This document shows, piece by piece, positions 18,305 to 46,080 of a stretch of 64,000 nucleotides of DNA. The first letter of the stretch is position 1, and each line of letters begins with the position of its first letter. This DNA is from Escherichia coli (GTDB lineage: Bacteria > Pseudomonadota > Gammaproteobacteria > Enterobacterales > Enterobacteriaceae): NCBI RefSeq assembly GCF_003018255.1, contig NZ_CP027440.1, one strand, 5' to 3'. Under the pieces are notes generated by a model that saw only the letters and a program-made list of their open reading frames with translations, was not told where the DNA came from and did no database searches. A program made the position numbers and the translations under genes.

Positions 18305-19188
18305 GGGAGTTCTACCGCAGGGGCGGGGAATTCTAAGTGATATCCATCATCGCATCCAGTGCGCCCGGTTTATCCCCGCTGACGCGGGGAACACACATGA
18401 ATGTCGGTTCAGACCGTGTTTTTACCCGGTTTATCCCCGCTGGCGCGGGGAACACGAGGCTGAACAGGGAGGGGGCTACCGGCACAGCGGTTTATCCCCG
18501 CTGGCGCGGGGAACACTTGCCAACCGCCAAAGACTGGAAAACCAATCTCGGTTTATCCCCGCTGGCGCGGGGAACACTTAAACTTGCCGCCGGTATGGGG
18601 GGAACGGGCCGGTTTATCCCCGCTGGCGCGGGGAACTCGTTTCGCGTCGATCGCCTTTTGCGCAATCGCGCCGGTTTATCCCCGCTGGCGCGGGGAACTC
18701 TTTCTTTTTCCATTTAAGTTATTCTAATACCCCGGTTTATCCCCGCTGGCGCGGGGAACTCGATCATGCCTTACTAAAAGGTCCGCTGACGGGCGGTTTA
18801 TCCCCGCTGGCGCGGGGAACTCATCATGACAAAAAGTTACGCTCATCTATTCAACGGTTTATCCCCGCTGGCGCGGGGAACTCTCCATATGTTGCCCCGC
18901 TCGGGACAACACCCCCGGTTTATCCCCGCTGGCGCGGGGAACTCTTAGCGCCGACAAAAGAAGTTGCGGATAACAGCGGTTTATCCCCGCTGGCGCGGGG
19001 AACTCGCCCGTTCCCAGGGAGTGCGGCTCCACCCCCGCGGTTTATCCCCGCTGACGCGGGGAACTCTTCAGTTTCACACTCGGTAATGCCGTTATTTACG
19101 GTTTATCCCCGCTGGCGCGGGGAACTCCTCGGGGCCAGCCTCCCCCATTAACCCGGCACCGGTTTATCCCCGCTGGCGCGGGGAACTC
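18305..19188 (-). CRISPR. type I-E CRISPR array: 14 intact or near-intact 29-nt repeats plus one degenerate terminal repeat (18305-18333), 14 spacers
   Basis: Plus-strand repeat CGGTTTATCCCCGCTGGCGCGGGGAACTC at a 61-nt period (reverse complement of the canonical E. coli repeat GAGTTCCCCGCGCCAGCGGGGATAAACCG). Spacers are 32 nt, one is 33 nt. The four leader-distal repeats end in CAC rather than CTC. Confidence 0.98.
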
Positions 19189-19293
19189 TCTAAAAGTATA
19201 CATTTGTTCTTAAAGCATTTTTTCCCATAAAAACAACCCACCAACCTTAATGTAACATTTCCTTATTATTAAAGATCAGCTAATTCTTTGTTT
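19189..19293 (-). promoter_or_regulatory. CRISPR leader and promoter region
   Basis: AT-rich about 105 bp between the cas2 stop and the first repeat; shares motifs with the leader of the second array. Confidence 0.7.
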
Positions 19294-20497
<1,204 letters not shown>

Positions 20498-20512
20498 TTT
20501 ATTACACCTCAA

Positions 20513-21112
20513 TCACAGTGGAGCCAAAGATAGCAAGCCACATCCCATCGATTTAGCTGGCCCAATACCTTGCTGTACAAGATCTATTAACGCTGGCGCG
20601 TCGTTGATGGTGATCACCCCTTCAAAGCAAACCGTTTGGATCTTTCCACTTTTACCATCACCAGAAAAATACTGTGGCCGTTCCGATATGGGATGCACAT
20701 CTTCAACGCGCGCCGCATTGCCCAATTTACGTTGCAACCACGCGATTTGTTCTGCTTCTTTTATTAACGGAACCCGACAGCGTTTAATATTCCCTTTACT
20801 GTCCAGGCGCTTTTGATTGTCGAGAATAGTTTTGATCGGATTTGCCCGAAGCCGAAAATAGAGTGGAACACCAACCTGAAGTTGAAATTCAACCTGTTTA
20901 GTTTTAATGACTGTCGCAACGGCAGTAGAAACAGGCATTTGCGCTGACTGCAATAAAACATGACAGCCTTCTGGTGTGTTTCGCTTCTCAACATGAAAAA
21001 GAAAATCACGAGCAGCATCCGGTCTGTTTGGAAATAAATGCCATAATCCCTGGTGAAGTTGGTAAAGATCCCTGCTCCAGGCCCTGGCAATGATGACTTT
21101 ACTGAGATACAT
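20513..21112 (-). CDS. casE: Cas6e (CasE/Cse3) pre-crRNA endoribonuclease
   Basis: 199-aa ORF with N-terminus MYLSKVIIARAWSRDLYQLHQGLW; position in the operon. Confidence 0.95.
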   Translation of the reverse strand: MYLSKVIIARAWSRDLYQLHQGLWHLFPNRPDAARDFLFHVEKRNTPEGCHVLLQSAQMPVSTAVATVIKTKQVEFQLQVGVPLYFRLRANPIKTILDNQKRLDSKGNIKRCRVPLIKEAEQIAWLQRKLGNAARVEDVHPISERPQYFSGDGKSGKIQTVCFEGVITINDAPALIDLVQQGIGPAKSMGCGLLSLAPL

Positions 21113-21773
21113 CCATACCTCCTTTAATCACATACCATTCTCGGGAAGCAAATTGTCGAGGTAAGGTGATCATCGGTTCGTCGCGCACCGTAAATTTTAA
21201 ATGATGCCCGTCAACTGATTCCTCACTATAAATATCGCCGCCAACGGGCTCATAATTTAATAGCGCCTTCTGAGGATCCGACGCCTGACATGTCCCGAGA
21301 AAAAGCGGTTGTGTTAGCGGACAACTCCTCCGCCCCAGATACGGTGTATACCGAGGCTTTAATACTGCTTTTTCAAGTTCTGACATAACCATCGTTGCCT
21401 GTGGTGTTAACCAGATAGCGACGGTAAAGGAGGCATCACATAAATATTCGCGCCATGTTTGAATCGTTTCATGACTTTTCAAACCACGGTAATCTTCTCG
21501 CGCTCCAAGGACTGTATGGTAATCACGCAACCCCGTTACAGACACACGACGATCGTCAAGAATGAGTTCATCGCAGCGCACTGCAAATTGCACACTCTCT
21601 GATAACGCCTGTAATGAAGAAGTATCATCACGTTGGATCCCAAGACAAGCCCCGAGTAGCCCTAATAACCCGCTTCGGGTCGGAAATCTTCCGGTAGGTC
21701 GCGTTCCTTCAAAGGTCGGCTGCCCCCAGGCTTGCATTGGCCCAGCAAGCCGCAAGATCAAATAAGATCTCAT
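21099..21773 (-). CDS. casD: Cas5e (CasD) Cascade subunit
   Basis: Start at MRSYLILRLAGPMQAWGQ, giving 224 aa; 14-nt overlap with casE. Confidence 0.95.
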   Translation of the reverse strand: MRSYLILRLAGPMQAWGQPTFEGTRPTGRFPTRSGLLGLLGACLGIQRDDTSSLQALSESVQFAVRCDELILDDRRVSVTGLRDYHTVLGAREDYRGLKSHETIQTWREYLCDASFTVAIWLTPQATMVMSELEKAVLKPRYTPYLGRRSCPLTQPLFLGTCQASDPQKALLNYEPVGGDIYSEESVDGHHLKFTVRDEPMITLPRQFASREWYVIKGGMDVSQ

Positions 21774-21775
21774 GT

Positions 21776-22867
21776 TCACGCCTCGCCATTATTACGAACC
21801 CAGGATTTTAACTGTTCTAAAGTAGGCATTTGTTTAACTTGAGCAGTAATTGGGTCTACATCAGATAAGCTGAATTGCGCAGCAGCTCCGTTCAGACCAT
21901 ATCCATTGGCAACGCGATCCCAATATTGATTAAACGCCTGTATAGACGGTTGCAAAAAGCCATCTTTCGCTTTAACCGCTTTTTCAAAAGCATTTGCCAT
22001 AGAAAGTGGCATATCGGAGAAATTAACCATTACCATATCCGCAGGGTTAAAAGCGGCATAAGTACGCTGTTTTGCTCCAGGGACCTCTGTTGCCAGCATA
22101 TGAACAACATGGGTTGCAATTTCCAGAGCCTGCTCCCTGGAGGCACCACCTAAATTTTCCTGAAGTTGAGCGAGGTTAATGTTGGCATAACGATAAAAAA
22201 CACCCGATGAAAATTCCTGAGTTCCCAGATGTGCAGAACCTTGTTCCTGTAAATCATCTACAGCGGTGAACCAGTCAATATCAGAATCAACCTGATGAGT
22301 AGTGATCGCATGCGCAATGGACATTGCACCATCAACTTTTCCCAACTCACTCATCATGCCGCTGGTTGCCATTCTTCCACTAAGCGCAATATCAACACCC
22401 TGCTGTAAATTCACACGTATGGCGGCAATATCTTCCTTAAGAACTTTGAGCAGCTTTTTATCATCCAGATTATCAGCCTCTGCTTTTGCAACCTGCTCAC
22501 AGAACCAGGCTATTTCTCCCACAACCCAGGGAGTAACCGCATCGGCAGAAATCTTTTCGGCTTCATCAACTAATTTACCGGAGAGCAGCGCTAATGTCTT
22601 ATCGATGATTTTTTGGTCAAAACGTTCACCAAGTTTTTGCCGAAGAACATCACGTAATTGTGCAAGATGAATTGTTCTGAGACTGGATTCACCAATATTT
22701 TGTGCGTAATAATCACTTTTACGCATCGCATGTTTAAGGCTTTGACTTGAAATTCTTACTCGTCTTTTCCCGCCGAAAATAGCGTCTTTCTGCATGTTCA
22801 TATCGTCGCGGTTCAGACATGAAGGGCTGTGAGAGATCAGAACATGAATATTGATAAAGTTAGACAT
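21776..22867 (-). CDS. casC: Cas7e (CasC/Cse4) Cascade backbone subunit
   Basis: 363-aa ORF with N-terminus [24 protein letters not shown]. Confidence 0.95.
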
Positions 22868-22879
22868 AGAAAGGTTTCC

Positions 22880-23362
22880 TTACGCATTTTTGTTTGTGGT
22901 CAATACAAAATCTTCCAGAAGTTGCTGGCGTTCGCGCTTTCCCCACCAGGTCAACATCCTGGCCATTAATGGCCAGTCAAGTACGGGTTCGGCGTGAGTA
23001 AGTAATCGACGTAACTGGACCATATCGGCTGTTCTGTCAGCCCGAATTAATTGAAAGATACGGCGCTCGTTAATTCTTCCACTATTGGCTAAAGCTCTTC
23101 CCAACGAGATACCTGTTGTTTGCTCCGTTTTTTTGTCCTGATGTCGGATGACATTCTTTCCTGCGCTCAGGCAAAACACCATGCGCAAAAGAGCCTGCTG
23201 GTGACGTGGGTTTTCCCAACCAAAAGATTGCACCAGCCTATAAAACGCAGGGATATCGCGTAATTCATCAGGTTCTGAAACACGTCTAATTTGCGCACAT
23301 GCTCCATTATCCAGTTGTTGCCAGGCTCGATATAAAGCCATTGCATCAATTTCATCAGCCAT
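22880..23362 (-). CDS. casB: Cse2 (CasB) Cascade small subunit
   Basis: 160-aa ORF; 8-nt overlap with the casA 3' end. Confidence 0.95.
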   Translation of the reverse strand: MADEIDAMALYRAWQQLDNGACAQIRRVSEPDELRDIPAFYRLVQSFGWENPRHQQALLRMVFCLSAGKNVIRHQDKKTEQTTGISLGRALANSGRINERRIFQLIRADRTADMVQLRRLLTHAEPVLDWPLMARMLTWWGKRERQQLLEDFVLTTNKNA

Positions 23363-24863
23363 TTGATGGCCCTCCTTGAGGTTTTAACTCCCGTAAATGT
23401 TTGTATAGCGTGGCGCGGGCAAGCGCTAATGTGCTTATTAATTTAGGATGATGTGCATAGGGAGCTACAGATTGATTAAATAGCATTTCACACAATTGAT
23501 GAAGTTTGTCTCGTAAATCAGCTATTACCTCATCAGCTTGGGAAAAATTAATATTCGCCAATACATCGGGAATTAATAATTCACTCTGTCGATAGAAATG
23601 CCTTTCTGCAGTCTCATGAACAGAAACTCCGGCCCCTTTGAAGTCTTTATTTTTAAACCCTTCTGCAAAGGTATATAACGCCTTGCGTAAGGCTGTTTTA
23701 TATCCCAAACCAACAGTCACTATTTCGTTTATCACATTGCCGTATTGTTGCCACCCCTGATTAAACATCAACACATCATGACGCCGTTCAAGAATAGATG
23801 CTTGATTATTACGATATCCCCCCATAATCAATTCAAGAGGACTTTGCGGCGCAATATTTCTGAATTGATTCACAACCGCCGCCACGCGATTTCCATTTTC
23901 ATTTTGAATAATCTTATCTACCACAACTCGGCTGATTTGTGTCCATGATGGTGCGGAGGTGGTGAAAGCAAGAAATTTTTCCTCAACCTCCCCTTTCTTG
24001 ACTGTTACCAGACAAGGGGAATGCGGATGGGGCCATAGCCCATTAACTGTAAAGGTAAATTTTTCCTTAAGAAAACCGGTATAACGCAAATTGCTTTCCT
24101 GACCACAGCAAGAACATTTACCAATCCCAATGGGATCGCATAGTTCAATATGCGCTGGTTGCCAGAATAAACCACGGACAAACCCAATTGAAGAAGCAGG
24201 CACCGATTCATTCGGCTTGACAGGCTTAACCCAGGTAGGTTGGTTTTCCGTATGTAATTCATTGGGAAATTGTTTTTGAAGACGAGGTATTGTGAGGACA
24301 TTGAGTAATACCGTCGAGCGAAGATCGATCCCACATACGAAGGTGGTTATAGGTGTTCCTCCACGTAAACCGCTTTTAAAGCCACCACCAAAACCAGGTG
24401 CCTGATTCGCCTGGTTGAATAACGCAATCGCAGTGCATCCACCACATAATGCTTCACCCTGCCCCGGTTGATTGACAAATGCACAATTCGTCGCGCCGCT
24501 TACCCCAGCCAACAGTTTTTCCATTGGAGTCACATCATTTGCTTTGACACCTTTGGTCTGCATAAAGGGATGTTCTGCGTGATTAAGGTAGAACATATCT
24601 ATCCACGGCGCGATGAGTTGTTGAAACTCATCTTCAGTGAGCGGATTCATTATGCGATGTCGAAATTCAACGTCATCTTTTGCCGGGGCGATAATTTGCC
24701 CAATGCAAACCAGCAGTGCTAAAGTGGCCAGTTCCATATCGTCACGGGGCAAACTTAATCGCCACTGATCTCTACTGCAGTATAGCGATTGCAGATTTAT
24801 GATTTGGACTTTCCCCCCGTTTCGCGGGCGTACAGGGATCCAGTTATCAATAAGCAAATTCAT
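23355..24863 (-). CDS. casA: Cse1 (CasA) Cascade large subunit
   Basis: 502-aa ORF with N-terminus MNLLIDNWIPVRPRNGGKVQIINLQSLY. Confidence 0.95.
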   Translation of the reverse strand: MNLLIDNWIPVRPRNGGKVQIINLQSLYCSRDQWRLSLPRDDMELATLALLVCIGQIIAPAKDDVEFRHRIMNPLTEDEFQQLIAPWIDMFYLNHAEHPFMQTKGVKANDVTPMEKLLAGVSGATNCAFVNQPGQGEALCGGCTAIALFNQANQAPGFGGGFKSGLRGGTPITTFVCGIDLRSTVLLNVLTIPRLQKQFPNELHTENQPTWVKPVKPNESVPASSIGFVRGLFWQPAHIELCDPIGIGKCSCCGQESNLRYTGFLKEKFTFTVNGLWPHPHSPCLVTVKKGEVEEKFLAFTTSAPSWTQISRVVVDKIIQNENGNRVAAVVNQFRNIAPQSPLELIMGGYRNNQASILERRHDVLMFNQGWQQYGNVINEIVTVGLGYKTALRKALYTFAEGFKNKDFKGAGVSVHETAERHFYRQSELLIPDVLANINFSQADEVIADLRDKLHQLCEMLFNQSVAPYAHHPKLISTLALARATLYKHLRELKPQGGPSNG

Positions 24864-25205
24864 TTGTTCTCCTTCATATGCTCCGACATTTCTCCTGCAT
24901 TTCTATGCGTCGGCACACTTCCGTTATCGGTAAAAACAAAGAAAAAATACGGCGTAATTAATTCAATAATCACATTCACTGCAAAAATATATTCATTGGT
25001 TTAATACAATTAACCTATACATATATTAAGATGTGTTGAATTGTTTAAAGACAATAATGCATGCATTTCAAATCTGCAAGTTATTCGTTTTATTATCAAA
25101 GAAATTTTTAGTTATAATAATTACCATAAATTTTATTACATAAAATATTCATACTGTGAATATAAAATCTCATACCGGGAAATTAAAAGAAGATGTACAT
25201 TGTGC
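24864..25205 (-). promoter_or_regulatory. cas3-casA intergenic region holding the cascade operon promoter (Pcas); expected H-NS-bound AT-rich DNA
   Basis: About 340 bp of very AT-rich sequence upstream of casA; promoter and H-NS/LeuO control are taken from established knowledge of the E. coli I-E locus, and no exact -10/-35 was called. Confidence 0.55.
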
Positions 25206-25234
25206 ACTTTCCCTACTTAAGTAGGGATAAACCG
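25206..25234 (+). repeat. solitary degenerate CRISPR-repeat-like hairpin, sense on the plus strand (antisense to cas genes and arrays)
   Basis: ACTTTCCCTACTTAAGTAGGGATAAACCG against the canonical sense repeat GAGTTCCCCGCGCCAGCGGGGATAAACCG: same length, 19/29 identical, terminal GGGATAAACCG identical, 6-bp stem and 4-nt loop kept by compensatory changes. Confidence 0.6.
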
Positions 25235-25277
25235 TTATTGGTCTTGTTATCGTCATTGATACCAATCATTCCCGAAG

Positions 25278-27944
25278 TTATTTGGGATTTGCAGGGATGA
25301 CTCTGGTCATCCCTTCATCCCGAGTGTAGGTAATAACAATATTATTACCCTGCCAGATCCATCCATCCTGATTCTGTTTCCCTTCCAGCCAAAGTAACCC
25401 ATCTTCATCTACTACTTCAGAAAAATTACGTTTCCAGGTGAAGGGTACATTGACGCGATTAAGTGCTAACGCCTCATACTGCTGTTCATGACTTAGGTCC
25501 TCGTAGACCTGGCCATCGAGCAGTTGTTTACCTGAAGACGTTTGTAAATAAGGCAATAATGGCAGGCTCATTTCCCCATCCCTCGTTACCGCAAGAATTG
25601 TTTCATCGTTATCCTGCAAGCTATATTCTTCAGCCCACTGCAGAACCTTGCGAGCCTTGAACCTCTTTTCACACTCAGCGCTTTCAAACTTATCCATGCC
25701 TTTGATGACCCATTCTGGCTCATCCATTTCAGCATCATCGTAAATGCTATCCAGCCATTGCCGGTAGGCATCGGGGAAAAATAAGGATGCTCCATTAAGT
25801 TCCTCAATATGTTGCTGCGTCCGCCACATGACTCTAACGTTGCTATAAATATGCTCATGTCGTCCGTAACCTTCGCCATCAGGCAGCAAAACGGTGGCAA
25901 GAGGAACCTCAAAACCAGCGGGACGATATTTGCGATGATGGCGATGTAAACGGCCCAATCGTTGGAAAAGTAAATCTGCGGGGCAATGCTGAGTAATTAA
26001 CCAATCAAAATCAACGTCGAGTGATTGTTCCACGACCTGGGTGGCGACAAGTATCCGTCCAACATTTCGCTTCCCATTTTTGCCGAAATTGCTAATAACT
26101 CGATTCTCTTTTTCACGACGATCGTTCAGCGTAAAGCGCGCATGAAACAAATCTATATCTACTTGCGTGTTATTTAGTTCCTTTAACCGTTGGTGGCATA
26201 GCTGTGCAACATCAACCAAATTGCAGATAAGACAGACTTGTGCACCCGCATTTGCCGCTACGATCATTCGCTCTAACATCCTAAGGTCAGGTAACATGTC
26301 AGCTAAATAAATAGGTTCTGGCCGAATCGAAAAGCGGGGCGGGAGTTGTTCTGAATGAGCTAACAGATCAAAACGTTGTGCACCATTCACACCTCGCCAG
26401 TTAATGAGTGGATATGCGGAGTTATTTTCCTCTGGATCTGTATGCAGACCATAAGTATCCAGAAGTTTCTGTTTTTGTTTCATTGGTAGAGTTGCGGAAA
26501 GAAGAATAACACTCCCCCCCACATCAGCCTGAGCCTTGAGCACAGCCTCCAGCAAGCCGTTCATATACGTGTCGTAAGCATGAACTTCATCAACAATTAA
26601 AACACTTCGACCAATTCCCAAACCACGGATAAAGCGGTGTTTAACTGGCAATACCGATATCAACACCTGATCAATCGTGCAAACGCCGATTTGCCCAAGA
26701 AACACTTTCTTATTGCTTTGTGACAACCACTGACAACACTGAACCCATGCTTCTTCTTGCCCCTGCTCAGTAAATGCGCGTGATTTTATTGATTGAAAAA
26801 GGTGGTTAAAACGTGAATTACCATGAGCAAGAATAAGATTTGGGGAGGTAAATAAACGGCTCGCGTTCGCTTCCATTCTGCTGAGCATTGCATTTGCAGT
26901 AGCTTGTGTAGGGAGGGCAAAAATAACACTATCCGCAAGTTGTTGGTCAATAAGTTTCCAGGCATAGGCCAGCGCAGTTTCAGTTTTACCTGAACCCGTA
27001 GGTGCCTCTATTACCGTCAGCCCGGGCGCTACTGGAAGAGCATCAACTAACACTTGTAATTGTCTGGGTTGATAGCCATTGTCCAGTAGAGCATGAACAC
27101 CTTCATAACATCGCTTATTTGATACAAGGCCGCTCAACTCCAATACCCGGCTCGCATCCTGCTGTCGGTCCTGGAAATACGTTCTTAGAGCATTTATGTT
27201 GGAAGGTGCATCCTCTTTAAACAGAAAGGTATTCGTTGTAGTCCAGGAGCCTAACCAGTCAGCAAGCGAGCAAAAACCTGCTAACAGTGATGAACAATCA
27301 GGTGGTATATCGTTTATAGATAACCCGGCTGGCGTTAAAAATAATGCTTCGAGTACAGATATCCACTCCTCACGAGCCTGTTTATCTTGCGCAGCATAAG
27401 ATGCCAGAGAAGCTGGCATTTCCCAACGCGACTTATCTTGATCCTGGGAATGTAATATAAAACCATGATGTCCTGTAACAGCCTCTACCCATGGAAACCA
27501 GGACTCATAAGGATGAGGAGCGGCATCAAAAAAACTGAAAAAATCCCCGGGAGATTGCTCTGAAAGTGAATCCTGGTTAAACCAATACAGACCGGCTGCA
27601 CCATGATTAAATTTACGGCACATTTGTGTTGATGGACCATTAAGTGATGGCGTTGCAGGATTTAATTTCAGCCAACTTTCTGCTGATTTATATTGGAATC
27701 GTATATCAAACTTTCCGATATCATGAAGGGCAATGAAAAATAACAGCCAGGCTTTCACCTTCTGTTTTGATAGCATTTCATTTCGGCAAAAAGCATTTTG
27801 TAGTACGACTGATTGATCCCACCAGCAATCTGCAACAGCTGCAACATCCAGGCAATGATAAATCAACAGATGAATATCATTTCCTTTCGTCAGGCTTTTT
27901 GAGGATTTCCCCCAGTAATGACATATATATTTAAAAGGTTCCAT
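25278..27944 (-). CDS. cas3: Cas3 HD nuclease / SF2 helicase (type I signature protein)
   Basis: 888-aa ORF with HD-domain N-terminus (HCLDVAAVADCWW...) and helicase motifs (GSGKTE, DEVH). Confidence 0.95.
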   Translation of the reverse strand: MEPFKYICHYWGKSSKSLTKGNDIHLLIYHCLDVAAVADCWWDQSVVLQNAFCRNEMLSKQKVKAWLLFFIALHDIGKFDIRFQYKSAESWLKLNPATPSLNGPSTQMCRKFNHGAAGLYWFNQDSLSEQSPGDFFSFFDAAPHPYESWFPWVEAVTGHHGFILHSQDQDKSRWEMPASLASYAAQDKQAREEWISVLEALFLTPAGLSINDIPPDCSSLLAGFCSLADWLGSWTTTNTFLFKEDAPSNINALRTYFQDRQQDASRVLELSGLVSNKRCYEGVHALLDNGYQPRQLQVLVDALPVAPGLTVIEAPTGSGKTETALAYAWKLIDQQLADSVIFALPTQATANAMLSRMEANASRLFTSPNLILAHGNSRFNHLFQSIKSRAFTEQGQEEAWVQCCQWLSQSNKKVFLGQIGVCTIDQVLISVLPVKHRFIRGLGIGRSVLIVDEVHAYDTYMNGLLEAVLKAQADVGGSVILLSATLPMKQKQKLLDTYGLHTDPEENNSAYPLINWRGVNGAQRFDLLAHSEQLPPRFSIRPEPIYLADMLPDLRMLERMIVAANAGAQVCLICNLVDVAQLCHQRLKELNNTQVDIDLFHARFTLNDRREKENRVISNFGKNGKRNVGRILVATQVVEQSLDVDFDWLITQHCPADLLFQRLGRLHRHHRKYRPAGFEVPLATVLLPDGEGYGRHEHIYSNVRVMWRTQQHIEELNGASLFFPDAYRQWLDSIYDDAEMDEPEWVIKGMDKFESAECEKRFKARKVLQWAEEYSLQDNDETILAVTRDGEMSLPLLPYLQTSSGKQLLDGQVYEDLSHEQQYEALALNRVNVPFTWKRNFSEVVDEDGLLWLEGKQNQDGWIWQGNNIVITYTRDEGMTRVIPANPK

Positions 27945-28246
27945 TAATAGCCTCCCTGTTTTTTTAGTATTATCGATGATATCAGTGGACTATTTTTCGA
28001 TGCTGCTCATAAATATCGAATTACAGTGATATACACATGTCTTGCCTCCCTGCAAAGAAGAGACTAACATTCGAATTGCTTAGGTTCGAACGCAGGCCTC
28101 AGGTTGATAGAAATATCGCCTGGGGCTTTTGTCCATCTGGAACCTCGCGAATGCTTAACGCCAGACAGCCTCAAGCACCCAACTCCATTCTATACCTGTT
28201 AATTCTCCCTGCGATGTTCACCTTTAAATGCCGGAATGCTGCTCGC

Positions 28247-42618: not shown

Positions 42619-44097
42619 ATGTCGAAAAAATACATCATAGGGATTGATGGCGGAAGTCAGAGCACAAAAGTGGTGATGTACGATCTGGAAGGTAATGTGG
42701 TTTGCGAAGGTAAAGGCTTATTGCAGCCGATGCATACGCCAGATGCCGATACTGCCGAACATCCTGACGACGATTTATGGACATCGTTATGCTTTGCCGG
42801 TCACGATTTGATGAGCCAGTTTGCCGGAAATAAAGAAGATATTGTCGGTATTGGTCTGGGCTCCATCCGTTGCTGTCGTGCGTTATTGAAAGCCGATGGC
42901 ACGCCCGCTGCGCCATTGATTAGCTGGCAGGATGCACGTGTAACACGTCCCTACGATCATACCAATCCAGATGTGGCCTATGTCACCTCTTTTTCGGGTT
43001 ATCTGACGCATCGCTTAACCGGCGAGTTTAAAGATAATATCGCCAACTATTTTGGTCAGTGGCCGGTGGATTATAAGAGCTGGACATGGAGTGAAGATGC
43101 TGCGGTAATGGATAAGTTTAATATCCCCCGTCATATGCTGTTTGATGTGCAAATGCCTGGCACCATTCTTGGGCATATCACACCACAAGCTGCGCTGGCG
43201 ACACATTTCCCGGCTGGGCTGTCGGTTGTTTGTACCACCAGTGATAAACCGGTAGAAGCTCTGGGAGCCGGGTTACTGGATGATGAAACTGCGGTAATTT
43301 CTCTTGGCACTTACATCGCATTGATGATGAACGGCAAAGCCTTGCCGAAAGATCCGGTGGCGTACTGGCCGATTATGTCTTCTATTCCGCAAACATTGCT
43401 GTATGAAGGTTACGGTATTCGCAAAGGCATGTGGACGGTGAGCTGGCTGCGCGACATGTTAGGCGAGTCGTTAATTCAGGATGCCAGGGCGCAGGATCTT
43501 TCACCGGAAGATTTACTCAACAAGAAAGCCTCTAGTGTGCCACCTGGCTGTAATGGGCTGATGACGGTGCTGGACTGGCTGACCAATCCGTGGGAACCGT
43601 ACAAACGCGGGATTATGATCGGCTTTGATTCCAGTATGGATTACGCATGGATATATCGTTCGATACTGGAAAGCGTGGCGCTGACGCTGAAGAACAATTA
43701 CGACAATATGTGTAATGAAATGAATCACTTTGCGAAGCATGTAATCATTACTGGCGGCGGTTCGAACAGCGATCTGTTTATGCAGATTTTTGCCGACGTG
43801 TTCAACCTTCCGGCACGACGTAACGCCATTAACGGTTGTGCAAGTCTGGGGGCAGCGATTAATACCGCGGTAGGTCTGGGGCTATACCCGGATTACGCAA
43901 CGGCTGTCGACAAAATGATTCGCGTGAAAGATATCTTTATACCGATTGAGAGCAATGCCAAACGCTACGACGCGATGAATAAAGGCATTTTCAAAGACCT
44001 AACCAAACATACTGATGTGATCCTGAAAAAATCGTATGAAGTGATGCATGGGGAATTGGGGAATGCGGATTCGATCCAGAGCTGGTCGAATGCGTAA
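42619..44097 (+). CDS. ygcE: FGGY-family carbohydrate kinase
   Basis: 492-aa ORF with N-terminus MSKKYIIGIDGGSQSTKVVMYD (sugar kinase ATPase fold). Confidence 0.85.
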   Translation: MSKKYIIGIDGGSQSTKVVMYDLEGNVVCEGKGLLQPMHTPDADTAEHPDDDLWTSLCFAGHDLMSQFAGNKEDIVGIGLGSIRCCRALLKADGTPAAPLISWQDARVTRPYDHTNPDVAYVTSFSGYLTHRLTGEFKDNIANYFGQWPVDYKSWTWSEDAAVMDKFNIPRHMLFDVQMPGTILGHITPQAALATHFPAGLSVVCTTSDKPVEALGAGLLDDETAVISLGTYIALMMNGKALPKDPVAYWPIMSSIPQTLLYEGYGIRKGMWTVSWLRDMLGESLIQDARAQDLSPEDLLNKKASSVPPGCNGLMTVLDWLTNPWEPYKRGIMIGFDSSMDYAWIYRSILESVALTLKNNYDNMCNEMNHFAKHVIITGGGSNSDLFMQIFADVFNLPARRNAINGCASLGAAINTAVGLGLYPDYATAVDKMIRVKDIFIPIESNAKRYDAMNKGIFKDLTKHTDVILKKSYEVMHGELGNADSIQSWSNA

Positions 44098-44132
44098 GTG
44101 AGGAAGGCCGGGCGGGAAACTGCCCGGCCTGA

Positions 44133-44271
44133 ACATACCTGAATGGTTATCCCCGCTGACGCGGGGAACATAAGTTCGACAACTTAAAAAATGATAACAA
44201 GTCCGGTTTATCCCCGCTGATGCAGGGAACATAATAAAAACTTTAACTAGTTCGGTTTATCCCTGTTTTTA
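44133..44271 (-). CRISPR. degenerate CRISPR remnant: three decayed repeats with AT-rich spacer-length intervals
   Basis: GGTTATCCCCGCTGACGCGGGGAACA, CGGTTTATCCCCGCTGATGCAGGGAACAT and CGGTTTATCCCTGTTTTTACAAGGAATAT at about 60-nt spacing, just downstream of ygcE. Confidence 0.8.
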
Positions 44272-44735
44272 CAAGGAATATTAACTACACTCGATGTCTT
44301 TAGAATAAAAGACAATACGAATCGTACTTTATCAATTTTCATTTAAAGTATGAACTGGATATCTTTATTCATAAGAACAATTCATCAACAGCGTATAGAG
44401 GCGGTTATGTAAAACCGCTCATTAGCCTCAAAACAAAGACAAATTTCCAGATTTATTACTTAATCAATGAATAACAAGCTTAAAAAATACACTGTAATTC
44501 TAAAGAAAAAATTAACAGGCATTAATTCAATATTAAAAAAATAATAGATTAAAATTTCTTAACGATTTAAGTATCATACAAATAACACTTTGATTAAATT
44601 TAATTTTTTGTATCGATAATTGTGAACTTCTCTGGCATGGAGAACTATTTTGAACATGAGGTGTTACGTGGATATGTTGCTTATTACAAGTACAGCTAAT
44701 ATAAAAACTTGAGAAAGAGATAACGGGTTATATGG

Positions 44736-45069
44736 TGGTTTATCCCCGCAGGCGCGGGGAACTCATAGAGAAAAGAAACGGCAGCTTTGCCACTTCCGGT
44801 TTATCCCCGCTGGCGCGGGGAACTCCGCGTTTCTAATCTCACCGCCACGGCGATCAACGGTTTATCCCCGCTGGCGCGGGGAACTCACCCCTTTAACGTC
44901 ACCAGACCGCTAACGACGCGGTTTATCCCCGCTGGCGCGGGGAACTCGCGTAACCATTTTGATGGCGCTACCGAAATGGCGGTTTATCCCCGCTGGCGCG
45001 GGGAACTCGATCAACGGCCTGGCGGCTGCCTCTGAAATCTCGGTTTATCCCCGCTGGCGCGGGGAACTC
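44736..45069 (-). CRISPR. orphan type I-E CRISPR array: 6 repeats, 5 spacers of 32 nt
   Basis: Same repeat as the cas-adjacent array at a 61-nt period; the leader-distal repeat is a variant (TGGTTTATCCCCGCAGGCGCGGGGAACTC). Confidence 0.97.
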
Positions 45070-45250
45070 TCTAAACATAACCTATTATTAATTAATGATT
45101 TTTTAAGCCAGTCACAATCTACCAACTTTACAGTATCACACAAACAACACATCCATTATGTTAAAGAGCACTTAATCCATTGATTAAAAAGCTAAATATT
45201 TAAAATAACTCTATACAAACTAAAATCTACCAAACTTCGCCGCAATAATT
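45070..45250 (-). promoter_or_regulatory. leader of the orphan CRISPR array
   Basis: AT-rich sequence abutting the last repeat, beginning TCTAAACATAACC, which parallels the TCTAAAAGTATAC start of the cas-adjacent leader. Confidence 0.6.
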
Positions 45251-45408
45251 TTCACTCCAGCGAAAAATTAACGCCACAGAATTTGTAGAGAATGATAATG
45301 ATTAGTCCGGGATGGGCAAGATGGATGAGTTTTCAGAGGCGACAAACAATATAAATGAGTAGAAGTCTTTACAGGTTCCACCCATTTATAACGCTTATAA
45401 ATGTTTAA

Positions 45409-46080
45409 TCAGGCAATATTTAGATATTTATGTGTTTGCATCGACAAACGCCAATTACGCGCAATGCAGGTTTCAATGCACAAACGTGTGGCATCATCCT
45501 TTTGGCTAATCGGCTGCAGTGCAATGACTCGCGGTTTATCATCGGTCAGCGTTGCCAGTAGTTCATCCAGTGCTTCAATATCACGTACGCGCCCCACTGG
45601 ATGCTTGATTTCGTTGGCTCGCTCCAGTGCCTGTGACAACACTTCATAGCCGCCGCGCATGTTCAGCTTTGGTGATACGGTAACCCAGGTATTCGGTGTG
45701 CAGCGTACCTCATGAGTACCACTGGTTTCAATCTGGCAGCTAAAACCATTCTTTTCGAGCAGATCAGTCAGTGGTAGCAAATCATGAATGCAAGGCTCAC
45801 CACCCGTAATCACCACATGCCGCGCGGTGTATCCCTGGCGACCAATGACAGCCAGCAAGTCTTCACTGCTCGCCGCCCCCCACTTATCACTCTCTTTGGT
45901 CTTCGCCAGAATGCTGAAAAGGGAGACTTCCCGATCCTCAAGCTTTTCCCAGGTGTGTTTGGTGTCGCACCAGGCACAGCCAACCGGGCATCCCTGTAAA
46001 CGAATAAAAATGGCGGGGACGCCGGTAAAGTAACCCTCACCTTGCAGGGTCTGGAACATCTCGTTAATCGGGTACTGCAT
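45409..46080 (-). CDS. queE: 7-carboxy-7-deazaguanine synthase (radical SAM)
   Basis: 223-aa ORF with radical-SAM Cys motif CPVGCAWC. Confidence 0.9.
   Translation of the reverse strand: MQYPINEMFQTLQGEGYFTGVPAIFIRLQGCPVGCAWCDTKHTWEKLEDREVSLFSILAKTKESDKWGAASSEDLLAVIGRQGYTARHVVITGGEPCIHDLLPLTDLLEKNGFSCQIETSGTHEVRCTPNTWVTVSPKLNMRGGYEVLSQALERANEIKHPVGRVRDIEALDELLATLTDDKPRVIALQPISQKDDATRLCIETCIARNWRLSMQTHKYLNIA

Follow-up and report, generated by a model that had tools for sequence, protein, structure and literature searches.

The Escherichia coli CRISPR-II locus: a live array, CRISPR2.3, beside a leaderless relic, CRISPR2.2, that is probably under constraint

In the 64-kb stretch of E. coli DNA analyzed here (the window), a short CRISPR array and a group of degenerate repeats lie together at a distance from any cas gene. 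A preliminary description took the array to be an orphan and the degenerate repeats to be an eroding older array or a former leader-proximal region. What, then, is this locus, and is its degenerate part really decaying? We are highly confident that the region is the E. coli CRISPR-II locus, made up of the live array CRISPR2.3 and the leaderless relic CRISPR2.2, the latter probably under constraint. As the second CRISPR locus of the species has been well described, the finding is an ordinary one, save for the unexpectedly good conservation of the relic.

The surroundings of the locus and the cas genes of the window are as follows.

42619–44097, plus strand: ygcE, encoding an FGGY-family sugar kinase, the left flank of CRISPR-II (open reading frame; named after its RefSeq orthologue)
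44105–44130, no strand assigned: G+C-rich hairpin 3′ of the ygcE stop codon with an eleven-pair stem in folds of both strands, a likely terminator between convergent transcription units
45409–46080, minus strand: queE (ygcF), the right flank (TIGR04322, 368 bits against a cut-off of 200)
18366–19188, minus strand: CRISPR2.1, the cas-adjacent array of 14 repeats (repeat search)
19294–27944, minus strand: complete type I-E cas operon, cas2, cas1, cas6e, cas5, cas7, cse2, cse1 and cas3 (NCBIfam)

The NCBIfam matches of ygcE to FGGY kinases all fall under their curated cut-offs, and hairpins equivalent to the one that follows this gene are present between ygcE and queE in genera that have no CRISPR locus. 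All eight I-E Cas proteins exceed the NCBIfam curated cut-offs. The complete operon and CRISPR2.1 lie 17–25 kb from CRISPR2.3, and 16.8 kb separates the end of cas3 from that array. With a full I-E cas operon in the same window, the array is cas-distal, and the term orphan is wrong.

The repeats belong to the I-E family and the flanking genes are ygcE and queE; nothing that we found contradicts the identification with a locus already described. CRISPR-II sits between ygcE and ygcF, with CRISPR2.2 and CRISPR2.3 either 0.5 kb apart or fused (PMC3903273), and only 2.1 and 2.3 have adjoining leaders (PMC3737337). The names of the arrays come from Diez-Villasenor et al. 2010, as cited in later papers. 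Direct comparison with published CRISPR-II (Almendros et al. 2014, PMC3903273; Garcia-Gutierrez et al. 2015, PMC4489801) gave the same flanks (ygcE and queE/ygcF), the same repeat family, an identical 0.5-kb gap between the parts, a CRISPR2.2 with three repeats and two fixed spacers, a leader at CRISPR2.3 alone, and the same distance of ~24 kb from CRISPR-I. The window differs in strain-level detail only. Its CRISPR2.3 holds five spacers versus six in K-12, and its CRISPR2.3 repeats all end in AACTC, whereas those of K-12 mostly end in AACAC; within CRISPR2.1 of the window, the oldest four repeats end in AACAC and the newest ten in AACTC. Between the window and K-12 MG1655, CRISPR2.2 is 100% identical.

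The live part of the locus and the two leaders of the window comprise the following features.

44736–45069, minus strand: CRISPR2.3, six repeats and five 32-nt spacers (repeat searches)
44887–44918, minus strand: CRISPR2.3 spacer 3, present without mismatch in phages P7, D6, RCS47 and SJ46 and in Stx2c phages
45070–45408, minus strand: leader 2.3, whose first ~70 nt share homology with leader 2.1 and hardly vary across Escherichia
19189–19293, minus strand: leader 2.1, by alignment with leader 2.3

Type I-E arrays have 29-nt repeats (28 by some conventions) with a palindromic core, unique spacers of ~32 nt and a 61-nt period. The six copies of the CRISPR2.3 consensus, CGGTTTATCCCCGCTGGCGCGGGGAACTC, start at 44736, 44797, 44858, 44919, 44980 and 45041, a period of 61 nt, and carry 0–2 mismatches each (2 in the leader-distal repeat, 44736–44764); no such match arose by chance in 100 shuffles. 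Unique 32-nt spacers of 44–59% GC, a leader, cognate cas genes and a spacer from a mobile element complete the picture of a type I-E array, and the initial account of six repeats and five spacers with their own leader, running from 45070 up to queE, was correct. The spacer search that it called for traced spacer 3 to P1-family phage-plasmids and Stx2c phages, with matches of 33/33 nt in D6, RCS47 and SJ46, 32/32 in P7 and 31/32 in P1. In phage D6 the protospacer is followed on the plus strand by CAT, which corresponds to an ATG PAM, in line with the AWG-type PAM of I-E arrays. Judged by its sequence, spacer 3 is a genuine anti-phage guide against P1-family phage-plasmids and Stx/lambdoid phages. 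The remaining four spacers had no match in the phage or plasmid sets, and the five-spacer set of the window is absent from all 5426 complete RefSeq E. coli genomes.

The DNA between 45070 and the queE stop codon at 45409 is AT-rich (32% GC). Over their first 70 nt, leaders 2.1 and 2.3 are identical at 43 positions, in register and without gaps; shuffled sequences gave 21.9 ± 3.8 identities, and none of 5000 reached 43. The O157-type leader shares 39/70 positions with leader 2.3 and 46/70 with leader 2.1, and an ACAAyCyACCAAC motif at +45 to +57 is common to all three. Leader 2.3 itself is identical at 69/70 positions in E. albertii and at 119/120 to leader 2.3 of K-12. A scan with the IHF consensus singled out no site in the leader-proximal 35 nt of leader 2.1 or 2.3. 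The alignment thus bears out the earlier suggestion of homologous leaders, and its corollary, that both could use the same Cas1-Cas2, agrees with reports that the leader-CRISPR2.3 pair accepts spacers when Cas1-Cas2 is supplied in trans (PMC3737337, PMC11788318).

CRISPR2.3, which has no adjacent cas genes, would be served in trans by the I-E proteins encoded 17–25 kb away. By established I-E biology, Cas1-Cas2 and IHF would add new spacers at its leader-repeat junction. A promoter in leader 2.3 (promoters have been reported in the literature for leaders 2.1 and 2.3) would drive a minus-strand pre-crRNA, Cas6e would cleave this transcript at every repeat hairpin, and Cascade and Cas3 would attack DNA matching the spacers.

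The relic and the DNA that separates it from CRISPR2.3 have the following parts.

44143–44171, minus strand: CRISPR2.2 repeat R1, ATGGTTATCCCCGCTGACGCGGGGAACAT, 6 mismatches to the consensus
44172–44203, minus strand: pseudo-spacer S1, 32 nt, 28% GC, nearly invariant across strains
44204–44232, minus strand: CRISPR2.2 repeat R2, 5 mismatches to the consensus
44233–44252, minus strand: pseudo-spacer S2, 20 nt, 15% GC, resembling the last 20 nt of S1 at 13/20 positions
44253–44281, minus strand: CRISPR2.2 repeat R3, CGGTTTATCCCTGTTTTTACAAGGAATAT, 13 changes from the consensus in a direct reading
44282–44735, no strand assigned: AT-rich inter-array segment, 454 bp, 27% GC, with no leader-like sequence and no conserved ORF

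CRISPR2.2 is a leaderless three-repeat relic, R1-S1-R2-S2-R3, spanning 44143–44281, with repeat spacings of 61 nt and then 49 nt. As in the published descriptions of CRISPR2.2, it lies between ygcE and CRISPR2.3 across a gap of ~0.5 kb and combines three repeats with two nearly invariant spacers and no leader. In a repeat-family comparison, 44187–44232 and 44236–44281 are 74% identical. Three degenerate repeats in the orientation of CRISPR2.3 had been recognized at the outset, and both points hold, with the range given (44133–44271) offset by ~10 nt. Degeneracy is not strictly progressive, R1 and R2 being alike and R3 far worse, and of the two AT-rich segments said to be of spacer length, only the 32-nt S1 is; S2 is too short.

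R1 keeps its hairpin intact, and the 8 nt of its would-be 5′ handle are degenerate. R2 keeps its hairpin with one G-U pair (in the crRNA sense) and an intact 5′ handle, ATAAACCG. The 5′ handle of R3 is likewise intact, and two double transitions and one G-U pair maintain its hairpin at 7 pairs; hairpin-preserving changes of this kind could arise by chance (estimated p about 0.15 for two double-hit pairs). Folded in the crRNA sense, R1, R2 and R3 each give a 7-pair hairpin, in a fold with z = −5.2, and the two 5′ handles that would be needed, those of R3 and R2, both survive. Decay in the leader-far nucleotides is typical of leader-distal repeats. R1 resembles the degenerate terminal repeats of CRISPR arrays in having decayed mainly in the 8 nt farthest from the leader; unlike them, it has two more degenerate repeats and 454 bp of AT-rich DNA between itself and the live array.

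Does the relic have a leader of its own? The DNA 3′ of R3 matched leader 2.3, leader 2.1 and the O157-type leader at 21/70, 17/70 and 25/70 positions in register, which is chance level. A decayed leader at this position was also rejected on the best sliding match (34/70) and on local alignments with z of 2–2.7 that were not collinear. There is no recognizable leader. Lacking one, CRISPR2.2 would take up no spacers, and its content would be fixed. No protospacer for S1 was found in phage, plasmid or IMG/VR sequences; the sole IMG/VR match is an E. coli chromosomal fragment bearing this same locus. A promoter scan of CRISPR2.2 gave nothing above chance, and no Rfam family reached its gathering score in the region, a sub-threshold hit to Chlorobi-1 (19 bits against a cut-off of 50) being noise.

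Several candidate features of the AT-rich segment were rejected. It has no homologue outside Escherichia chromosomes, and a mobile-element origin for it or for the relic found no phage or true plasmid match, the 'plasmid' matches being mislabelled chromosomes. A weak candidate for a further decayed repeat at 44619–44647 (16/29) was equalled or beaten by 4 of 300 shuffles and is not conserved in O157-type strains. ORFs that might encode CreT-like toxins are all 31 aa or shorter, and frameshifting indels in the segment distinguish the strains. Homology to the cas3-cse1 intergenic region amounts to one repeat-like element and the 9-mer preceding it (Smith-Waterman z = 1.5).

Several features favor a neutrally decaying pseudo-array, the remains of an old array or a former leader-proximal region with no present function: the repeats are 6, 5 and 13 positions off consensus, the pseudo-spacers have 28% and 15% GC versus 44–59% in real spacers, and there is no leader. 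Whole-unit deletions exist as well (a strain variant, L007, the lineage E69, and the fused arrays discussed below). The relic is absent or reduced in ~24% of complete E. coli genomes and is therefore dispensable. Shmakov et al. (2023, bioRxiv 10.1101/2023.03.03.530964) regard array-adjacent mini-arrays without targets as probably degraded repeats, a view stated for type III systems. The pattern of variation argues against neutral decay. Of 5426 complete E. coli genomes, 4123 contain a 638-bp stretch, comprising the relic and the AT-rich segment, that is 94–99% identical. The relic is at least 99% identical to that of the window in 3868 of 4156 genomes (93% of carriers), and the 139 nt that follow it reach this level in 0 of 4150. 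Across 56 haplotypes, nucleotide diversity (pi) was 0.0099 in the relic, 0.035 in the 5′ flank and 0.018–0.047 in the AT-rich segment, so that the relic is 2–5 times less diverse than the non-coding DNA on both sides; it is also less diverse than the last 100 nt of ygcE, and no other non-coding stretch of the region varies so little. In a comparison of six diverse strains, variable sites numbered 1 of 139 for the relic and 55 of 454 for the AT-rich segment (Fisher p = 4e-6, a value that overstates significance because the strain samples are not phylogenetically independent). In E69, a divergent Escherichia lineage, 87 of 90 relic positions are identical and R3 is unaltered (100%), although ygcE differs by 8.6%; the AT-rich segment is 76% identical. 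Common polymorphisms of the relic are confined to the R1 loop or to the dispensable tail of R1.

Together, the low diversity, the kept hairpins and the intact 5′ handles suggest that constraint still acts on the relic, RNA being the most plausible level. The description of the relic as eroding was not borne out, given a pi of 0.010 against 0.035 in the 5′ flank and the retention of the hairpins and needed handles, and we consider neutral decay rather unlikely. That the relic evolves several-fold more slowly than its surroundings while keeping exactly the parts that a crRNA needs is the point of wider interest. Its transcription and processing, and any present-day role, are inferred.

Comparison with other strains located a working counterpart of R1 alone, as the terminal repeat of single 'CRISPR2.2-3' arrays; no intact counterparts of R2 or R3 appeared in the strains examined. 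Such arrays occur in two E. coli variants (L003 and L008), in E. albertii and in E. whittamii, where R1 directly adjoins the array or leader. At its 3′ end, the R1 of fused arrays matches the resident repeat variant, CTC in E. coli and CCC in E. albertii. Among deletion variants, L007 lacks R1-S1 and E69 lacks R2-S2. Recombination between CRISPR2.2 and CRISPR2.3 repeats would repeatedly delete the intervening DNA and yield single 'CRISPR2.2-3' arrays ending in R1, and the relic most likely predates the split of E. coli from at least one other Escherichia lineage.

Because E. albertii and E. whittamii are without the AT-rich segment, the path from deletion to a fused locus has a competitor, in which the split locus is derived: into an ancestral single array with R1 as its terminal repeat, ~590 bp (S1-R2-S2-R3 and the AT-rich DNA) would have been inserted in the E. 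coli lineage. In keeping with insertion, those two species have a single array or a lone repeat starting with R1; the segment is missing as well from Escherichia sp. MOD1-EC7003, which however has a truncated R1 and an interrupted array; and other genera have no CRISPR whatever at the ygcE-queE site. However, the insert would have to start and stop inside repeats and bring two more repeats with it, and no donor sequence was found in phages, plasmids or IMG/VR. Repeat-to-repeat deletions are directly observed (L007, E69), the resident CTC/CCC ends of R1 are as expected of a chimeric repeat made by deletion, and the divergent lineage E69 is already split. The direction of evolution between fused and split locus is not settled, and we judge insertion unlikely.

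A third reading goes further than constraint and takes the relic for a functioning leaderless mini-array, akin to CreA/CreR or crRNA-like elements. Its minus-strand transcript would be cut by Cas6e into S2 (20 nt) and S1 (32 nt) guides, which in Cascade would bind a partly complementary site and regulate without cleavage. Mini-arrays of this type (Shmakov et al. 2023, bioRxiv 10.1101/2023.03.03.530964; Liu et al. 2023, bioRxiv 10.1101/2023.03.10.532045) share with the relic degenerate repeats, conserved pseudo-spacers that acquire nothing, an upstream repeat that preserves the 5′ handle and a downstream repeat that preserves the hairpin, and the lack of a leader or IHF-type integration signal. 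The architecture of CRISPR2.2 fits, with degenerate repeats around invariant pseudo-spacers and a handle upstream and hairpin downstream of them. Handles would come from R3 and R2, both of which have ATAAACCG intact, and 3′ hairpins from R2 and R1, whose hairpins are likewise intact; decay is limited to the unneeded end of R1, and the G-U pairs are valid solely in the crRNA sense. S2 is exactly 12 nt below normal spacer length, which equals two of the 6-nt steps of Cascade. Comparable elements are documented for I-E systems, and the window itself contains one, between cas3 and cse1, with a clear target.

On the other side, S1 and S2 have no convincing target in the window. In CreR/CreA systems the pseudo-spacer pairs in part with a promoter, over the seed plus 10 nt or more, next to a valid PAM. 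Our search of the 64-kb window recovered the known target of the cas3-cse1 mini-array as a positive control, and found for S1 and S2 no PAM-flanked partial match that extends beyond the seed. The sole 7/7 seed matches, at 2291–2322 (S1) and 44643–44662 (S2), have no extension, and bare 7-nt seeds are expected at this frequency by chance (~0.5 per spacer); other strains do not preserve the S2 site. Known CreR/CreA mini-arrays also lie in a cas intergenic region, whereas the relic sits beside an array between housekeeping genes, 16–25 kb from the cas genes. It has three repeats, and mini-arrays with three or more number only 12 (Shmakov et al., bioRxiv 10.1101/2023.03.03.530964). The promoter search gave the relic nothing above chance, it is dispensable, and strains that have no cas genes, BL21 for one, still carry it. 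We therefore consider a working mini-array of this kind quite improbable.

Only very tentatively, then, might CRISPR2.2 be a conserved leaderless mini-array whose two fixed guides, Cascade-loaded or Cas6e-bound, serve a regulatory or housekeeping role at a target beyond the window. If true, such a role would account for a relic that stays nearly constant across E. coli and a sister lineage while the intergenic DNA around it diverges. Were the relic functional, a second crRNA-like element, hitherto unrecognized, would exist in the best-studied type I-E system besides the known cas3-cse1 mini-array, with consequences for how E. coli employs CRISPR machinery that stays mostly silent under laboratory conditions.

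The window holds 20 copies of the consensus repeat CGGTTTATCCCCGCTGGCGCGGGGAACTC at three or fewer mismatches; shuffled sequences held none. Written on the plus strand, the repeat shows the reverse complement of the crRNA sequence; each array therefore reads along the minus strand and has its leader at the high-coordinate end (leader 2.1 from 19189 onward, leader 2.3 from 45070 onward). CRISPR2.3 has a 61-nt period and five unique 32-nt spacers (44–59% GC). The remnant, CRISPR2.2, consists of degenerate repeats (R) and pseudo-spacers (S).

18366-19188, minus-strand reading: CRISPR2.1, the cas-adjacent array, 14 repeat copies
19294-27944, minus strand: cas2, cas1, cas6e, cas5, cas7, cse2, cse1, cas3
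44097: ygcE stop
44105-44130: G+C-rich hairpin between the ygcE stop and the remnant
44143-44171: R1, 6 mismatches to consensus
between R1 and R2: S1, 32 nt, 28% GC
44204-44232: R2, 5 mismatches to consensus
between R2 and R3: S2, 20 nt, 15% GC
44253-44281: R3, 13 mismatches to consensus
44736-45069, minus-strand reading: CRISPR2.3, 6 repeat copies
45409-46080: queE, the right flank

The preliminary description of six array repeats and three degenerate ones (44143-44281) is correct, apart from remnant coordinates about 10 nt too low. The locus is already known: the Mojica group described CRISPR-II, between ygcE and ygcF, as CRISPR2.2 plus CRISPR2.3, either 0.5 kb apart or fused as a single CRISPR2.2-3 array (PMC3903273). 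Of 5426 complete E. coli genomes, 4123 carry the 638-bp stretch between the ygcE stop and the array start (at least 80% of the length covered, 94–99% identity), and the K-12 MG1655 remnant is identical to that of the window. RefSeq annotation of the fetched loci marks only the 2.3 array as CRISPR, leaving the remnant unmarked. The neighboring ygcE (42619-44097) is unusually diverse within E. coli, with pairwise nucleotide identities of 94.7–99.9% among eight strains and all pairs but two at or below 97.4%; queE is 98–99% identical among most of these strains.

CRISPR2.3 had been labeled an orphan. This label is wrong: a complete cas set, with every protein above its NCBIfam cut-off, lies within the window, and the array is therefore cas-distal, 24.5–25 kb from cas1-cas2 and 16.8 kb from the cas3 end. 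Just past cas3, a sok antitoxin RNA (Rfam RF01794, 104 bits; 28024-28180, minus strand) implies a hok/sok module adjoining the cas operon. The four oldest CRISPR2.1 repeats end in AACAC and the ten newest in AACTC, and a very degenerate repeat-like sequence lies nearby at about 18307-18334; both fit the idea of a leader-cas module exchanged beside an older array (PMC3903273). In CRISPR2.3 every repeat of the window ends in AACTC, and all but the terminal repeat of K-12 (L001 2139-2533) end in AACAC.

The proposal that the two leaders are homologous and able to use one Cas1-Cas2 is supported. Counted from the last repeat, 43 of the first 70 nt of leaders 2.1 and 2.3 are identical without gaps (shuffles 21.9 ± 3.8, none of 5000 reaching 43; other offsets at most 31), and this significant similarity favors a shared Cas1-Cas2. 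Moreover, BL21 derivatives without cas genes and leader 2.1 gain spacers once Cas1-Cas2 is supplied (PMC3737337). The other leader type, from an O157:H7 genome, matches leaders 2.1 and 2.3 at 46/70 and 39/70, respectively, and all three share ACAAyCyACCAAC at +45 to +57. Leader 2.3 hardly varies across the genus (in E. albertii, 69/70 and 117/120 identical positions). Within it, AATCTACCAAC and AAAATCTACCAAAC form a direct repeat (45113-45126 and 45222-45234); the E. whittamii leader (L012 7577-7610) has apparently lost the ~100 nt between the copies. Only CRISPR2.1 and CRISPR2.3 are reported to be adjoined by leaders (PMC3737337). The remnant has no recognizable leader: the sequence after R3 shows no such similarity to the three leaders (21/70, 17/70 and 25/70).

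Spacer 3 (44887-44918) plus the first base of the repeat that follows it gives a 33/33-nt match in phages D6, RCS47 and SJ46; the spacer itself matches P7 and Stx2c phages at 32/32, P1 and several lambdoid phages at 31/32, and also several hundred P1-like plasmids. The P1 site is flanked by ban and a tRNA gene, and the D6 protospacer is flanked by CAT on the plus strand, an ATG PAM. Searches of the phage and plasmid sets gave no hit for the other four spacers, S1 and S2 had none among phages, plasmids and IMG/VR, and none of the 5426 complete RefSeq E. coli genomes carries the five-spacer set. In the crRNA sense, the oldest spacer carries a terminator-like hairpin and then a T-run (44774-44797, minus strand; GGAAGTGGCAAAGCTGCCGTTTCT TTTCTCTATG), which is confined to this strain's spacer and probably incidental.

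In the strains compared, R1 is the only remnant repeat that corresponds to a working repeat elsewhere. It is the terminal repeat of a single array in comparison loci L003 and L008, where ordinary spacers and repeats follow it directly up to leader 2.3 (the published CRISPR2.2-3 form), and in E. albertii, which has R1, two repeats and the leader. M7638 and 'E. coli E69' show unit losses: one R1-S1 unit is missing from M7638, and E69, a divergent lineage whose ygcE differs by about 8% from that of E. coli, has R1-S1-R3, the AT-rich segment (44282-44735 in the window) and an array. E. whittamii retains a lone R1 and a shortened leader. R1 ends in CTC, rather than CAT, in L003 and L008 and in CCC in E. 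albertii, like the adjoining repeats. An old split locus that repeatedly lost DNA by repeat-to-repeat deletion is tentatively favored over one insertion event, since the 3' end of R1 agrees with the local repeat variant in every case and loss of units is directly visible. In Citrobacter, Enterobacter, Klebsiella, Raoultella, Cedecea and others, convergent ygcE and queE lie 45–110 bp apart, and the gap contains no CRISPR. Within the AT-rich segment of the window, 117 nt before the array, a weak repeat-like match (44619-44647, plus strand; 16/29 to consensus, equaled or exceeded in 4 of 300 shuffles) could be a fourth, almost erased repeat; its conservation does not extend to O157-type strains.

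The hallmark of CreA/CreR-type elements, regulatory crRNA-like mini-arrays documented for I-E systems (bioRxiv 10.1101/2023.03.03.530964), is a fixed pseudo-spacer bounded by degenerate repeats. In the crRNA sense (z = -5.2), R1, R2 and R3 are each predicted to form a 7-pair hairpin with a 4-nt loop, whereas the opposite-strand fold has C-A mismatches in R2 and R3. Two double transitions and one G-U pair preserve the pairing in R3, a compensatory pattern that alone is not significant (estimated p about 0.15). R3 and R2 keep the 5' handle ATAAACCG intact, and decay in R1 is confined to the unneeded end corresponding to the handle. The window also contains a mini-array matching the E. coli I-E element of Shmakov et al. 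2023 (bioRxiv 10.1101/2023.03.03.530964):

25207-25293, plus strand: CreR-like mini-array, cas3-cse1
25207-25234: its first pseudo-repeat, CTTTCCCTACTTAAGTAGGGATAAACCG
25235-25266: its pseudo-spacer, TTATTGGTCTTGTTATCGTCATTGATACCAAT

Its second pseudo-repeat has a hairpin that overlaps the stop codon of cas3. The target search recovered its AAG-flanked partial target, which serves as a positive control; this target lies at 25081-25112, at a distance of 120 nt within the cas3-cse1 intergenic region (seed 7/7; 16/27 non-flipped positions). The same search of the 64-kb window with S1 and S2 returned only bare 7-nt seeds at chance frequency, and the S2 seed site (44643-44662) lacks conservation across strains; a regulatory role thus finds no support in the window, and we consider it unlikely that the remnant is such a mini-array. 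S1 (at 44192-44203) and the cas3-cse1 pseudo-spacer (at 25241-25252) share the 9-mer CTTGTTATC near the 5' handle, at offsets 0 and 6 (estimated chance probability about 0.01); this is a lead only, and could reflect a shared origin of these degenerate elements.

The view of the remnant as eroding is contradicted by the comparative data. Among six diverse E. coli strains, variable sites number 1/139 in the remnant, 4/48 in the 5' flank, 55/454 in the AT-rich segment and 5/70 in the leader core; in ygcE, 22% of third codon positions vary (remnant versus AT-rich segment, Fisher p = 4e-6, for phylogenetically non-independent strains). At least 99% identity to the window is found for the remnant in 3868 of the 4156 genomes that carry it and for the next 139 nt in 0 of 4150. 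Across 56 phylogenetically non-independent haplotypes, drawn from 95 metagenome contigs (24-mer anchor outside the remnant) and RefSeq loci, the remnant has a pi of 0.0099 (S1 0.007, R2 0.004, S2 0.004), versus 0.033 in the final 100 nt of ygcE, 0.035 in the 5' flank and 0.018–0.047 across the AT-rich segment. Of the four non-singleton remnant substitutions, three fall in the R1 loop or dispensable R1 end and one in the R2 stem. Even E69 keeps 87/90 remnant positions, versus 76% of the AT-rich segment. Across these phylogenetically non-independent samples CRISPR2.2 is well conserved, not eroding.
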